Below are positions 1-5,989 of a DNA stretch of 5,989 nt, in pieces (the stretch's first letter is position 1; each line of letters starts with the position of its first letter). This stretch comes from a virus (lineage: Duplodnaviria; Heunggongvirae; Uroviricota; Caudoviricetes): IMG/VR virus record IMGVR_UViG_2563366803_000001; one strand, given 5' to 3'. The notes below the pieces were generated by a model, which saw nothing but the letters and a program-made list of their open reading frames with translations, made no database searches and had not been told where the DNA came from. The translations under genes and the position numbers were made by a program.

Positions 1-235
1 TCAAAATCGGTGGAGCTGCATGACAAAGTCATCGGGCATTATCTGAACATAAAACACTATCAATAAGTTGGAGTCATTACCAATCTGTAATAAAAGCGTA
101 AACAACTGCCGCTAGGCTTGCTGATCCCGCGCAACAAAACGCCATGCTTTGCTCGCAGATGGTTGGCAACCGACGACAGTCCTGCTAAAACGTTCGTTTG
201 ATATCATTTTTCCTAAAATTGAATGGCAGAGAATC
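1..235. promoter_or_regulatory. Non-coding region upstream of proB; expected to hold the proB promoter and, from K-12 gene order, the divergent phoE promoter. Individual -35/-10 elements not resolved.
   Basis: No convincing ORF on either strand. A weak GAGA Shine-Dalgarno precedes the proB ATG at 236. The phoE assignment is from remembered K-12 gene order (phoE-proB-proA-thrW), not from sequence in the window. Confidence 0.35.
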
Positions 236-1339
236 ATGAGTGACAGCCAGACGCTGGTGGTAAAACTCGGCACCAGTGTGCTAACAGGCGGATCGCGCCG
301 TCTGAACCGTGCCCATATCGTTGAACTTGTTCGCCAGTGCGCGCAGTTACATGCCGCCGGGCATCGGATTGTTATTGTGACGTCGGGCGCGATCGCCGCC
401 GGACGTGAGCACCTGGGTTACCCGGAACTGCCAGCGACTATCGCCTCGAAACAACTGCTGGCAGCGGTAGGGCAGAGTCGACTGATTCAACTGTGGGAAC
501 AGCTGTTTTCGATTTATGGCATTCACGTCGGGCAAATGCTGCTGACCCGTGCTGATATGGAAGACCGTGAACGCTTCCTGAACGCCCGCGACACCCTGCG
601 TGCGTTGCTCGATAACAATATCGTTCCGGTAATCAATGAGAACGATGCTGTCGCTACGGCAGAGATTAAAGTCGGCGATAACGATAACCTTTCTGCGCTG
701 GCGGCGATTCTGGCGGGTGCCGATAAACTGTTGCTGCTGACCGATCAAAAAGGTTTGTATACCGCTGACCCGCGCAGCAATCCGCAGGCAGAACTGATTA
801 AAGATGTTTACGGCATTGATGACGCACTGCGCGCGATTGCCGGTGACAGCGTTTCAGGCCTCGGAACTGGCGGCATGAGTACCAAATTGCAGGCCGCTGA
901 CGTGGCTTGCCGTGCGGGTATCGACACCATTATTGCCGCGGGCAGCAAGCCGGGCGTTATTGGTGATGTGATGGAAGGCATTTCCGTCGGTACGCTGTTC
1001 CATGCCCAGGCGACTCCGCTTGAAAACCGTAAACGCTGGATTTTCGGTGCGCCGCCTGCGGGTGAAATCACGGTAGATGAAGGGGCAACTGCCGCCATTC
1101 TGGAACGCGGCAGCTCCCTGTTGCCGAAAGGCATTAAAAGCGTGACTGGCAATTTCTCGCGTGGTGAAGTCATCCGCATTTGCAACCTCGAAGGTCGCGA
1201 TATCGCCCACGGTGTCAGTCGTTACAACAGCGATGCATTACGCCGTATTGCCGGACACCACTCGCAAGAAATTGATGCAATACTGGGATATGAATACGGC
1301 CCGGTTGCCGTTCACCGTGATGACATGATTACCCGTTAA
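236..1339 (+). CDS. proB: Glutamate 5-kinase (gamma-glutamyl kinase), 367 aa
   Basis: The ORF track gives 149..1339, but the protein from the internal ATG at 236 ([19 protein letters not shown]...) matches the known ProB N-terminus and a 367-aa length. It has the amino-acid kinase fold and a C-terminal PUA-like region. TAA stop at 1337-1339 lies 11 nt before the proA start, an operon arrangement. Confidence 0.96.
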
Positions 1340-1350
1340 GGAGCTGGCCG

Positions 1351-2604
1351 ATGCTGGAACAAATGGGCATTGCCGCGAAGCAAGCCTCGTATAAATTAGC
1401 GCAACTCTCCAGCCGCGAAAAAAATCGCGTGCTGGATAAAATCGCCGATGAACTGGAAGCACAAAGCGAAATCATCCTCAACGCTAACGCCCAGGATGTT
1501 GCTGACGCGCGAGCCAATGGCCTTAGCGAAGCGATGCTTGACCGTCTGGCTCTGACGCCCGCACGGCTGAAAGGCATTGCCGATGATGTGCGCCAGGTGT
1601 GTAACCTCGCCGATCCGGTGGGGCAGGTAATCGATGGCGGCGTACTGGACAGCGGCCTGCGTCTTGAGCGTCGTCGCGTGCCGCTGGGGGTGATTGGCGT
1701 GATTTATGAAGCGCGCCCGAACGTGACGGTTGATGTCGCTTCGCTGTGCCTGAAAACAGGTAACGCAGTGATCCTGCGCGGCGGCAAAGAAACGTGTCGC
1801 ACTAACGCGGCAACGGTGGCGGTGATTCAGGACGCCCTGAAATCCTGTGGCTTACCGGCGGGTGCCGTGCAGGCGATTGATAATCCTGACCGTGCGCTGG
1901 TCAGTGAAATGCTGCGTATGGATAAATACATCGACATGCTGATCCCGCGCGGCGGGGCTGGTTTGCATAAACTGTGCCGCGAACAGTCGACGATCCCGGT
2001 GATCTCAGGTGGTATAGGCGTATGCCATATTTATGTTGATGAAAGTGCAGAGATTGCTGAAGCATTAAAAGTGATCGTCAACGCGAAAACCCAGCGTCCG
2101 AGCACATGTAATACGGTAGAAACGTTGCTGGTGAATAAAAACATCGCCGATAGCTTCCTGCCCGTATTAAGCAAACAAATGGCGGAAAGCGGCGTGACAT
2201 TACACGCAGATGCAGCTGCGCTGACACAGTTGCAGGCAGGCCCCGCGAAGGTGGTGGCGGTTAAAGCCGAAGAGTATGACGATGAGTTTCTGTCATTAGA
2301 TTTGAACGTCAAAATCGTCAGCGATCTTGACGATGCCATCGCCCATATTCGTGAACACGGCACACAACACTCCGATGCGATCCTGACCCGCGATATGCGC
2401 AACGCCCAGCGTTTTGTTAACGAAGTGGATTCGTCCGCTGTTTACGTTAACGCCTCTACGCGTTTTACCGACGGCGGCCAGTTTGGACTGGGTGCGGAAG
2501 TGGCGGTAAGCACACAAAAACTCCACGCGCGTGGCCCAATGGGGCTGGAAGCACTGACCACTTACAAGTGGATCGGCATTGGTGATTACACCATTCGTGC
2601 GTAA
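1351..2604 (+). CDS. proA: Gamma-glutamyl phosphate reductase (glutamate-5-semialdehyde dehydrogenase), 417 aa
   Basis: 417-aa ORF starting [20 protein letters not shown], with a GGAG Shine-Dalgarno (1326-1329) upstream of the ATG. Aldehyde dehydrogenase-type protein in the expected position and length for ProA after proB. Confidence 0.96.
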
Positions 2605-2610
2605 ATAAAA

Positions 2611-2677
2611 CCGGGTGATGCAAAAGTAGCCATTTGATTCACAAGGCCATTGACGCATCGCCCGGTTAGTTTTAACC
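2611..2677 (+). terminator. Possible proBA operon terminator: 11-bp stem (2611-2621 with 2655-2665, one G-U pair), 33-nt loop, then a T-rich tract
   Basis: ccgggtgatgc pairs with gcatcgcccgg and is followed by ttagttttaa, starting 7 nt after the proA stop. The loop is unusually long for an intrinsic terminator, so confidence is low. Confidence 0.3.
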
Positions 2678-2678
2678 T
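2650..2678 (+). promoter_or_regulatory. Candidate thrW promoter: -35 TTGACG (2650-2655), 17-bp spacer, -10 TAACCT (2673-2678)
   Basis: Hexamer matches with consensus spacing about 40 nt upstream of the mature tRNA 5' end. The -10 is weak (conserved T, A and final T only). Overlaps the 3' arm of the hairpin above. Confidence 0.3.
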
Positions 2679-2718
2679 TGTCCACCGTGATTCACGTTCG
2701 TGAACATGTCCTTTCAGG

Positions 2719-2794
2719 GCCGATATAGCTCAGTTGGTAGAGCAGCGCATTCGTAATGCGAAGGTCGTAGGTTCGACTCCTATTATCGGCACCA
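2719..2794 (+). tRNA. thrW: tRNA-Thr, anticodon CGT, 76 nt with encoded CCA
   Basis: 7-bp acceptor stem gccgata/tatcggc, D-loop agctcagttggtagagc, anticodon loop ttCGTaa, T-arm ggttcgactcc, discriminator A and genomic CCA (2792-2794). Confidence 0.92.
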
Positions 2795-2808
2795 TTAAAA
2801 TCAATAAG
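2750..2808. other. Approximate prophage attL: the attachment core is expected to overlap the 3' part of thrW and the short spacer before the int stop
   Basis: The integrase stop codon (2809-2811) lies 14 nt past the tRNA CCA. tRNA-targeting integrases rebuild the tRNA 3' end from phage sequence. Exact core limits cannot be set without attR or attP. Confidence 0.4.
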
Positions 2809-3972
2809 TTACACATCATTAGTACCTTCCTTATTTTTTGACTGGGACAAATTTGGGACCGATGGGTTCAGGATCGAGTCTATTTGCCGTGCGTGTTCGG
2901 TAAGGTGATTAGGTGCAAGGTGAGCATATCGACGAACCATTTCGATAGACTCCCAGCCTCCCATTTCCTGTAACACTGACAACGGGACTCCGGCTTGAAC
3001 CAGCCAACTTGCCCAGGTGTGTCTCAAGTCGTGAAATCTGAAATCATCAATACCAGCCCGTCTCAGCGCCGCTTTCCAGGCTGTGTTTGCGTCATACCGC
3101 ATCTTCCTTACTGTTGGCGCTTTCGTTCCGTCTGGTTTGGTACAGCTTTCCTTGTACACAAATACCCAACGGTGATGATTCCCGATTTGTTTTTTCAATA
3201 CGCGACATGCAGTATCATTCAGCGCAACGCCAATTGCGCGGTTTGATTTACTCTCTTCCGGGTTTATCCATGCCACCCGGCGCTGCATATCTATTTGTTG
3301 CCATTCAAGGTTGATGATGTTCGAGCGTCTTAAGCCTGTTGCCAGTGCAAATTCAACAACAGACTTTAATGGCTCCGGACATTCATCAATCAGCCTTTGT
3401 GCTTCATGGGGCTCCAGCCAGCGGATCCGTTTATTCTTTGGTTGAGGCACTTTAATAATTGGTGCCTTATCCAGCATTTTCCATTCACGCTCTGCGGCTC
3501 TTAGTAGGGCCTTTATAAATGAAAGATGCGTAGCCTTCGTTGCAACGGACGCTGGTTTTGGCGTGTATTCTGGAACAGGTTTCCCTTTTTTTCTGCATGC
3601 TTCTGCCCTGAGTTTCCAGTTTTCCTCATGACGCCGGTTCGTCATTTTCTGCATTGCTGAATAAATTTTTGATTCAGTAATGTCTCTTAGTTGCATTCCT
3701 GCGAAATGTTGAAGCCAGAATCCGATCCGGCTTTTGTCATCGTCCAGTGATTTTTTATGTGCTTTCTCTTCAAGCCACCTGACACATGCTTCCTCGAACG
3801 TTATATCAGGTATTTCACCAAGTTTACTGACCCGCCATGCTTCAGCCTTTAGCTTGTCATGGAGTTCTGTCGCCTGCCTTTTGTCCTTTGTTCCAAGAGA
3901 CTTTTTAAATCTTTTACCGTTCGGCAATGTGAAACTGGCGTACCATATTTCACCTCTGCGGAAGAGTGACAT
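2809..3972 (-). CDS. int: Phage tyrosine integrase (site-specific recombinase), 387 aa, P22 Int-like
   Basis: C-terminal catalytic signature [40 protein letters not shown] (HxxR ... Y) and an upstream R in ATGLRRSNI. The N-terminus [22 protein letters not shown] matches my recollection of P22 Int. Shine-Dalgarno GAGGAAA precedes the ATG at 3972. Confidence 0.93.
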
Positions 3973-4199
3973 TTTCTTTCCTCTGTTATGCCATCACCCG
4001 CGCTCACCTGGACAGTATGCAGCGGAGACTGAAGAGCCGCAATGCAGGCTTGTCGTGTTGTGAGGTAAGGAGATTTATTCTTAGTGGGATCTTTGCGTGT
4101 TGCCTGAAGACGCCCTGTGCGTATCCAGTTAATAGCAGTCGGTCTGGATATCTTGAGAAAATGACAGGCCTCATCGAGTGTGAGGCTGTATGGCTCCAT
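3849..4199 (-). CDS. xis: Excisionase, 116 aa, P22 Xis-like
   Basis: Starts at the internal ATG 4199-4197 ([32 protein letters not shown], helix-turn-helix-like), preceded by a strong AAGAGGTG Shine-Dalgarno. The ORF-track start at 4283 has no such site. The 116-aa length matches recalled P22 Xis. The 3' end overlaps int by 124 nt in another frame. Confidence 0.8.
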
Positions 4200-4543
4200 T
4201 ATTTCACCTCTTGCTGTGACATTGTTGAAAAACGGATACCAGCTCGTTGCTGCCAGACGATCCAACCGAGAGTCATATCCCATGCCATGTATTCGTTATC
4301 GCCGTTTTTTGCTCTCCGACGATCGACTGTTTTACCGAAACGCTTTTCCATAAATAATTCATAGGCTGCGCGTTCATCTGGCTCAACTTCCAGAGATGCC
4401 AGTGCAATCCGTGCCAGTTCTAAATCATTTTCAAGCTCAGCGCGAATCTCAGCGAATGCACTCTGTGTTAAGGCGAACTCAATGCTCTGCACTTTATTCC
4501 GTGCGCGCTCAAGCAGTGCATGGTAGTTAATTTCGGTTGTCAT
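4199..4543 (-). CDS. Hypothetical prophage early-left protein, 114 aa, unknown function
   Basis: Good GAGG Shine-Dalgarno about 9 nt upstream of the ATG at 4543. Its start overlaps the stop of the upstream gene (ATGA, 4540-4543) and its TAA stop overlaps the xis ATG (TAATG, 4197-4201). Charged N-terminal half that looks helical by eye; no motif I recognise. Confidence 0.6.
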   Translation of the reverse strand: MTTEINYHALLERARNKVQSIEFALTQSAFAEIRAELENDLELARIALASLEVEPDERAAYELFMEKRFGKTVDRRRAKNGDNEYMAWDMTLGWIVWQQRAGIRFSTMSQQEVK

Positions 4544-5418
4544 ACCCCTACCTCTTCGAATTCCAATTCCAATTGATCACCCCAGATTTCACATGACTCT
4601 GAACACGAACCGGTATCGAATCGCCTGGCCTGTACCATCGCCTGATACAAATTTCTGTAGTCGCTGTTGGCAGACATTCTGGCAATTCCGTCAAGCGTCA
4701 GGTGACCACGGTACATAATGTCTTTACCTGTTCTGCGATGACCATCCCTGACGTGTTTGCCTGTAACCAGCTCATTAAAAACTCGCATCAGACCTGGTTC
4801 GTCTTTACATGCAAGCCCCAGCTTTTGCGTTGACTTTTTGATGCAGAAAACACAGTTCCCGAGATGCTCCGGGATTTGCAAATCAAAAGGTTGTTTTCGC
4901 CACCACCGGATAACATCCGACTTATCAAAATCTGACAGCTCGGCAAGATACCGGACGCCCGATTTCGGTTTCAGCCTACGGGGTTCGTCTGCACGAATAC
5001 CCAGCCATGTGATGTAATTACCTCGCCCGAAATGGTTATCGCAGTATTTCGTGAAAGGGATGAGTTTTAGCCTGTCAGTACAGAACGCGCCGCCGATGTA
5101 TGGCGTGCCGTACTTTTTAACCATGTCCATAAACGGTTTAAGCACCGGCATTCGTGTCTGAATATCCTTTGGCTCCCATTCTGTATAACCATTTGGCTGC
5201 CCAAGCTCAGGATTTATATCGACCTGTAACACAGTTAGTGGTATGTCCCAGAACTTTACAACCTCCCGGATAAAGCGGTATGTCAGCGGATGTTCGCAAC
5301 CGGTATCCATAAAGATGTAGCAGACGTTATTGCCAGCCTTTCTTTGTTCTTCCATCAGGTGAACAAGATATGCGGATGTTCTCCCGCCAGAAAAACTAAC
5401 TACATGAGTTATGCACAT
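4540..5418 (-). CDS. PAPS-reductase-like PP-loop ATP pyrophosphatase family protein, 292 aa
   Basis: N-terminal PP-loop motif VVSFSGGRTSAYL (SGGxxS type), as in the CysH/CysD/DndC family. Cysteine motifs NCVFC and C-terminal CSESC. Start ATG 5418-5416 overlaps the 3' end of the HD-domain ORF by 10 nt. Confidence 0.8.
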   Translation of the reverse strand: MCITHVVSFSGGRTSAYLVHLMEEQRKAGNNVCYIFMDTGCEHPLTYRFIREVVKFWDIPLTVLQVDINPELGQPNGYTEWEPKDIQTRMPVLKPFMDMVKKYGTPYIGGAFCTDRLKLIPFTKYCDNHFGRGNYITWLGIRADEPRRLKPKSGVRYLAELSDFDKSDVIRWWRKQPFDLQIPEHLGNCVFCIKKSTQKLGLACKDEPGLMRVFNELVTGKHVRDGHRRTGKDIMYRGHLTLDGIARMSANSDYRNLYQAMVQARRFDTGSCSESCEIWGDQLELEFEEVGV

Positions 5419-5766
5419 TTGCGTAATTCAGATAACTCGTTGAAGCGTTCCATAAACATCCCGTAGGCATGGCCCGGTGCCAGTGGAATAACTTTGAACA
5501 TCTCTGTTGCCGGGATACCTTCCAGTACAGGCCATAAAGAGCCATCATCAAGCCCGAGATCACGGCGTTCGGTTGCCAGCATAATGAGATCGGCATATTT
5601 CACTGGCGTGCTCATAACAGGAGGTAACCCGTATTTCTCACGGATTACTGCATCTATTTTTTCTTCCATCCGTTTATAGTCAGGAAGAAGGCGTTTCAGT
5701 GGTGCGGGGATGTCCTGGCAATACGCTTCTGTTGCATCATGCATTAACGCTTCAAAAGCAAATTCC
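5409..5766 (-). pseudogene. C-terminal fragment (about 119 codons) of a YfbR/YfdR-like HD-domain 5'-deoxynucleotidase, N-terminus removed by IS2
   Basis: The frame is open from the IS2 junction. The motif ALMHDATEAYCQDIPAPLK matches the recalled YfbR metal-binding motif MYHDASEVLTGDLPTPVK, and the later VKYADLIMLATE resembles YfbR VKQADALCAYLK. The part upstream of the HD motif, about 55 residues including the first His, would lie beyond the IS2 end. Confidence 0.7.
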
Positions 5767-5807
5767 TGGATTTGCCCCTATATTTCCAGACATCTGTTAT
5801 CACTTAA
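5767..5807 (-). repeat. IS2 right terminal inverted repeat (IRR), about 41 bp
   Basis: Same sequence match as the IS2 feature above. The element boundary at 5766/5767 is set by where the recalled IS2 terminus ...CAAATCCA ends. Confidence 0.7.
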
Positions 5808-5989
5808 CCCATTACAAGCCCGCTGCCGCAGATATTCCCGTGGCGAGCGATAACCCAGCGCACTATGCGGATGCCATTCGTTATAATGCTCGAACGCCTC
5901 TGCAAGGTTCTTTGCTGCCGTTAACCCGTCTGGTTTGGGCATGATACTGATGTAGTCACGCTTTATCGTTTTCACGAAGCTCTCTGCTA
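5778..5989 (-). CDS. insD: IS2 transposase InsD (orfB), C-terminal 70 residues; 5' part outside the window
   Basis: The translation ...[68 protein letters not shown] matches the recalled IS2 InsD C-terminus. TAG stop at 5778-5780. The ORF is open to the window edge. Confidence 0.85.

Follow-up and report, generated by a model that had tools for sequence, protein, structure and literature searches.

A probable attL-only remnant of an Sf-type prophage, cut by IS2, at the thrW tRNA gene

The window analysed here, a stretch of 5,989 nucleotides, in all likelihood (a probability of roughly nine in ten) holds the attL end left by an SfIV/SfV/SfII/SfI-type temperate phage that integrated at thrW and was then cut by IS2, the remainder of the prophage having been lost by IS-mediated deletion. 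That P22 and the Sf phages integrate at thrW through the same 46-bp core has been in the literature for decades, and many E. coli genomes are already known to contain near-identical modules. The additional points are only that the element is an IS-eroded remnant reduced to attL, and that its nearest kin are Sf phages and not P22. Its proper annotation is an Sf-type (P22-family integrase) prophage remnant, attL only, and not a prophage, and it has little importance beyond that correct annotation. The window also records how, in an IS-rich Escherichia/Shigella lineage, IS2 and IS1 eroded a prophage and about 15 kb of the chromosome beside it.

Results

An integration module of the P22 family next to the 3′ end of thrW

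The window opens with proB (about 236-1339) and proA (1351-2604), followed by a lone tRNA gene, thrW, in which no base differs from thrW of K-12 (Table 1). The TAA stop of the integrase gene (2811-2809) is separated from the CCA end of the tRNA by a 14-nt spacer, TTAAAATCAATAAG (2795-2808). Compared by BLASTP with P22 Int (NC_002371), the integrase is identical at 347 of 387 residues (90%, gap-free, E = 0), and it shares 386 of 387 residues (99%) with Int of SfIV. Its catalytic domain is full-length, matching PF00589 with E = 3.2e-48 over profile positions 1-171 of 172, and it contains the complete R...HxxR...H/W...Y motif set of tyrosine recombinases, with GLRR at 215/216 (R215/216), HDLRH (H314, R317), W340 and Y349. 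Int is a tyrosine integrase of the heterobivalent type.

Table 1. Coordinates of the features in the 5,989-nt window
Feature	Position	Strand	Basis or remarks
IS1 element end, contig end	1-81	+	Upstream of proB; by sequence
thrW, tRNA-Thr(CGT), complete	2719-2794	+	ARAGORN (single tRNA); bacterial half of attL (B) and att core
att core, ATTCGTAATGCGAAGGTCGTAGGTTCGACTCCTATTATCGGCACCA, 46 bp	2749-2794	.	From tRNA anticodon loop to CCA
attL P′ arm	2795-2870	.	14-nt spacer, then TGGGAC direct-repeat pair in the 3′ coding end of int
int, intact-looking 387-aa tyrosine recombinase	2809-3972	-	ORF list; PF00589; BLASTP
xis, 116-aa excisionase (recombination directionality factor)	3849-4199	-	PHROG 2907; PF12728
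114-aa early-left ORF, unknown function	4199-4543	-	ORF list; PHROG 660 (function unknown)
PAPS-reductase-like gene, 292 aa (moron)	4540-5418	-	PF01507; PHROG 424, E = 1e-90
yfdR-like 5′-deoxynucleotidase gene, truncated	5409-5768	-	PHROG 318/6402
IS2 element end with 3′ end of an IS3-family transposase gene	5769-5989	-	Starts TGGATTTGCCCC; contig end

The xis ORF as called mechanically spans 3849-4283 and would encode 144 aa. The start equivalent to that of P22 is an internal ATG at 4199, which yields a 116-aa protein and is preceded by AAGAGGTGAAATA, including a GAGGTG Shine-Dalgarno sequence. The product is identical to P22 Xis at 101 of 116 positions (87%, gap-free, E = 5e-74 by BLASTP) and to SfI Xis at 93%; it matches the excisionase family PHROG 2907 (E = 2.3e-50) as well as PF12728 (HTH_17). 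The two genes overlap by 124 nt, with a geometry identical to that of P22 (21353-22516 and 22393-22743), and both look intact. The preliminary description of this DNA had proposed a P22-type int-xis module at thrW from protein lengths of 387 and 116 aa, like those of P22 Int and Xis, and from an integrase stop 14 nt past the tRNA CCA. All of these coordinates and lengths hold, and both proteins are close to their P22 counterparts over the full length and without gaps. Low identity to P22-family proteins was to have counted against the proposal; the BLASTP comparison with P22 and its relatives returned the opposite, at values far above chance. A scan of 2600-4700 for promoters and terminators gave hits at chance level only, and a search for short repeats in 2600-4400 returned nothing relevant.

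Aligning the window with phage attP sites revealed 46 bp (2749-2794) that are identical in P22, L, SfI and SfIV. This homology begins abruptly at 2749, to the left of which the window reads the 5′ part of thrW and the phages their P arm. The published att core of SfI, SfII, SfV, SfX and P22 consists of exactly these 46 bases (PMC3636060), and that of SfIV has been published as well (PMC3851460). The paper on phage L describes the P22 attP as a tRNA-like segment downstream of int and reports that integration rebuilds an intact thrW (PMC8022706); the same paper also places P22 attB in thrW, citing Lindsey 1992. In the window the core coincides with the 3′ portion of thrW, and int ends beside the tRNA's 3′ end. 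Since the 46 bp match the published Sf/P22 core, the phage copy can be taken to rebuild the 3′ part of the tRNA gene. Because the homology starts at 2749 while the 5′ part of thrW is chromosomal, the junction in the window is an attL (B-core-P′). The crossover would lie somewhere within the 46-bp core, and whatever is 3′ of it would be phage-derived. The placement of P22 attB in thrW, the phage origin of the 3′ portion of the tRNA and the view of the module as a case of tRNA-targeted integration had all been put forward in the preliminary description, and all of them hold. We also considered a tRNA gene carried by the phage itself, a reading that was dropped because the tRNA's 5′ 30 nt, like the spacer upstream of it, are chromosomal sequence continuous with proA.

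On the phage side of the core, the 3′ coding end of int contains two direct repeats of TGGGAC (2843-2848 and 2854-2859) that are 11 bp apart, a motif with only three copies in the whole window. The sequence TGGGACAnATTTGGGAC is unchanged in six relatives ranging from P22 to Pantoea and Edwardsiella, with variation at flanking positions. The two repeats are candidate arm-type Int sites.

IS2 truncation and absence of attR

The phage DNA extends for about 3 kb (2749/2795-5768), and its right-hand limit is an insertion element that begins at 5769 with TGGATTTGCCCCTATATTTCC... and which, from its terminal sequence, we take to be IS2. The transposase gene has its stop codon at 5778-5780 and remains coding up to the end of the contig, the ORF at 5778-5975 corresponding to the C-terminus of an rve domain; a PF13683 gene is called at this IS2 end in scaffold KE137162.1. 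The interrupted yfdR-like gene is without its first ~59 codons, and the ORF left, read from an ATG at 5744, encodes 111 aa, as compared with 178 aa for the full gene in E. coli 357900. Over 82-5768 the window matches 55 complete E. coli genomes with a thrW prophage at 98.8-99.1% identity, and in 55 of 55 the homology ends at 5768, where the IS2 end follows in the window. The yfdR′::IS2 junction is spanned in none of 5,426 complete E. coli genomes (megablast), and the exact junction had no matches in species-representative genomes. The DNA may come from an IS-rich lineage of Shigella or of an enteroinvasive-like kind.

The window corresponds, with zero mismatches, to a whole contig lying between runs of N in KE137162.1 (GCA_000408585.1; positions 9756-15744 of our extract L007). 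On the IS2 side of this contig there is a gap of roughly 5 kb, followed by ykgO, ykgM and ykgR. The same yfdR′::IS2 junction occurs in a second assembly, on a gapless contig of 2.6 Mb (L006) that leads from IS2 through IS1 to ykgO-ykgM-ykgR, with rclC/rclA beyond. In K-12, ykgO-ykgM-ykgR are found about 15 kb past the attR of CP4-6, after yagP, paoABCD, yagU, ykgJ, the ecp operon, matA and ykgL. Since the phage DNA gives way to IS elements and then to ykgO-ykgM-ykgR, a deletion appears to have claimed the remaining prophage with attR, as well as about 15 kb of chromosome. We searched for a second copy of the core and found none in the window (up to 8 mismatches, or up to 3 in a 23-nt half), and none in the 10-kb flanks of L007, which partly consist of Ns, or of the gapless L006 (up to 6 mismatches, or up to 2 in a half). 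With a single core in the window and these flanks, and phage DNA that stops at 5768/5769, the locus does not qualify as an intact prophage. The missing attR together with the IS2 cut after about 3 kb indicates a degraded remnant rather than an excisable prophage. The preliminary description had held that the lack of an attR repeat downstream would suggest such a remnant, and this is the part of it that now applies, the identity of the module being upheld. The probable loss of attR is read from the scaffold order of the draft assembly and from the related gapless contig.

Two other fates of the missing DNA were considered. The remainder of the prophage and attR could have been relocated by an IS-mediated inversion instead of being deleted, as might happen in a lineage that is rich in IS elements and rearranged, and in which the int segment of L006 is inverted relative to proBA. 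We consider this very unlikely, because ykgO-ykgM-ykgR on the source scaffold keep their K-12 order and orientation relative to proBA-thrW, an arrangement that deletion produces and inversion does not. It is highly improbable, too, that IS2 made a simple insertion in the yfdR-like gene of a complete inducible prophage, with some 35 kb and attR lying in the gap or further along the chromosome. The window does end inside IS2 with the other side out of view, and int and xis are full-length, yet the gap in the scaffold measures about 5 kb, with ykgO-ykgM-ykgR on the contig after it, while in the gapless L006, which has the identical junction, IS2/IS1 abut ykgO without phage genes or an att core.

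At its other end the window begins with 81 nt that recur in L006 at the termini of three IS1 copies, whose neighbouring PF03400/PF03811 genes support the name IS1. In KE137162.1, phoE is gone from between crl and proB, where an IS1 end and a gap of 620 Ns are found instead. In L006 (9756-20336), the segment from int to IS2 is inverted with respect to proBA, and a P4-like element, fragments of IS21, and IS1 lie between the two. This layout shows that IS elements have extensively rearranged the surroundings of thrW in the lineage.

Kinship with Sf phages and with E. coli thrW prophages

From 2749 on, the DNA of the window is 97.4-98.3% identical to that of the Shigella flexneri phages SfIV, SfV, SfII and SfI, so that int, xis and attP are nearly identical to those of sequenced Sf phages. 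By contrast, identity to the P22-like Salmonella phages ST64T, L, ES18 and ST104 is only 80.6%, and the match ends with xis. The P22-type label of the preliminary description therefore stands for the family of the integration module, and the source group is refined to SfIV/SfV/SfII/SfI in place of P22 proper, which we rejected as the identity of the element on this difference in DNA identity (about 98% versus 80.6%). The window shares with the Sf phages the 46-bp core, the P′ arm and the thrW target next to proA, and with SfIV, SfV and SfII a common sequence that reaches into the yfdR-like early gene; it differs from them in being cut by IS2 after about 3 kb.

Between xis and the yfdR-like gene, the 114-aa ORF, labelled hypothetical in E. 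coli 357900, has a TAA stop that overlaps the xis ATG by 1 nt. The PAPS-reductase-like gene that follows is shared with the E. coli prophages and absent from SfIV and SfV, and the match to Sf phage DNA is broken into two pieces around it; SfIV has orf30/31 in its stead. This gene occupies the place of two small hypothetical ORFs of SfIV/SfV, a mosaic swap common to the E. coli thrW prophages. Sf phages have a gtrA-gtrB-gtr(type) cluster adjacent to attP, at the prophage's attR end, which is missing here. The window showed no such cluster, and neither did the 10-kb flanks on L006 and L007; the intact relative in E. coli 357900 is also without gtr. With no gtr genes seen, the element cannot be called serotype-converting.

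With the SfV/e14/phiP27-type thrW prophages of E. coli 357900 and ETEC H10407, the window has in common proBA, thrW, int, xis, PAPS reductase and yfdR; those prophages are full-length with attR, whereas the window is cut at 5768. The prophage of E. coli 357900 comprises 40.4 kb between two perfect 46-bp cores, with an SfIV-type P arm (GTGGGACGTGTGAGCGCAG...) preceding the core at attR. It encodes an HK97-type head and a contractile tail and belongs to the SfV/e14/phiP27 type of phage rather than to the P22-like podoviruses. P22 itself agrees with the window in the 387- and 116-aa protein lengths, in the 124-nt overlap, in being identical to thrW over 46 bp and in having int beside the tRNA's 3′ end, but it reads GTTAAATCAAATAC 3′ of the core where the window has TTAAAATCAATAAG, and both its early-gene neighbours and the virion genes of intact relatives are unrelated. 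That the window is the end of a genuine P22-like podovirus (Lederbergvirus) prophage is hardly tenable, for all the 90% and 87% identity of Int and Xis to P22 and the common att core, given the 80.6% DNA match that stops at xis (query 31-1485) against about 98% into the early genes for the Sf phages, the yfdR-like and PAPS-reductase genes downstream where P22 has eaC/eaG/eaA, and intact relatives with HK97-type head and tail sheath/tube genes.

CP4-6 of K-12 occupies the same thrW site and has the same 46-bp repeat at both of its ends (3902-3947 and 38210-38255 in L016). It differs in its integrase, IntF, an unrelated protein of 466 aa encoded at the far (attR) end, and in its unrelated gene content. 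The preliminary description had placed an unrelated CP4-6 at this tRNA gene in K-12, in agreement with the annotation, in which CP4-6 starts inside thrW.

tRNA targets of the integrase family

We surveyed 80 relatives of Int in species-representative genomes. In 68 of these 80, a tRNA gene lies directly after int in antisense orientation: tRNA-Arg(TCT) at 34 loci, tRNA-Thr(CGT) at 22, tRNA-Lys(CTT) at 6, tRNA-Thr(TGT) at 4 and tRNA-Met at 2. All tRNA-adjacent loci with an Int identity of at least 81% are at tRNA-Thr(CGT), and relatives that are about 60-73% identical adjoin tRNA-Arg(TCT). This distribution agrees with the published split of these integrases into a thrW-specific P22 type and an argU-specific DLP12/epsilon34 type (PMC2629481). 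The DLP12/epsilon34 type is like the window in its integrase family and in an int that abuts the tRNA's 3′ end (PMC2629481), and unlike it in target tRNA and core sequence.

Discussion

In recombination of the lambda/P22 kind, attL and attR arise when Int, together with IHF, recombines attP with the core in thrW, and Xis acting with Int reverses the reaction. Our preferred reading, an Sf-type attL remnant left by IS-mediated deletion, would begin with the entry into thrW of a phage of lambdoid organisation equipped with a P22-family integration module, Int having recombined the attP core with its 46-bp identical counterpart in the tRNA gene. Regeneration of the tRNA gene's 3′ part from the core supplied by the phage would leave thrW intact, with the P′ arm and int adjoining it, then xis and the distal early-left genes. 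IS2 would later have inserted in the yfdR-like gene, and an IS-mediated deletion would then have taken whatever else the prophage contained, attR, and the neighbouring chromosome from yagP to ykgL. What remains would be a stub of ~3 kb with intact-looking int and xis and no partner site, which, attR being gone, should no longer be able to excise as a phage. We infer the order of these events, as we do the assignment of the arm sites and any residual activity of Int and Xis.

That the stub is not inert is an unlikely reading. Under it, thrW could go on serving as a landing pad thanks to the intact int, xis and attL, and the stub's Int and Xis might act in trans on elements whose match to thrW is confined to 16-24 nt at its 3′ end.

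The IS2-truncated stub also occurs on contigs L006 and L008-L015, where no more than 16-24 nt from the 3′ end of thrW come after int, and other elements follow (for example at 2987-3100 of L010). Several of these short thrW 3′ ends have a 1-nt deletion, TGGTGC-GATAATAGGA. The elements found between int and thrW include P4-like satellites (primase, AlpA, Ogr/Delta, Psu), and others contain a pair of reverse-transcriptase genes or a DprA/hydrolase pair. One carries PRiA4_ORF3, PerC and genes for the P22-type ejection proteins gp16/gp20/gp7, with no tailspike gene before the junction. These contigs suggest a tandem occupancy of thrW through a shorter core.

A different arrangement is seen in S. 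flexneri SFBU1023 (L020) and 'E. coli' ECMA0423 (L021), at 2867-4224, where the 46-bp core lies before an int of 99% identity, thrW lacks its 5′ part and there is no tRNA gene within 3 kb. This junction looks attP-like or tandem rather than like an attL. Finally, a 100%-identical Int is encoded beside tRNA-Thr(CGT) on a 5.5-kb contig (JAEWTL010000063.1; L019) of the metagenome-assembled genome 'Bacillota bacterium OH_SDB_141'; this contig was most likely mis-binned and stems from Escherichia/Shigella.
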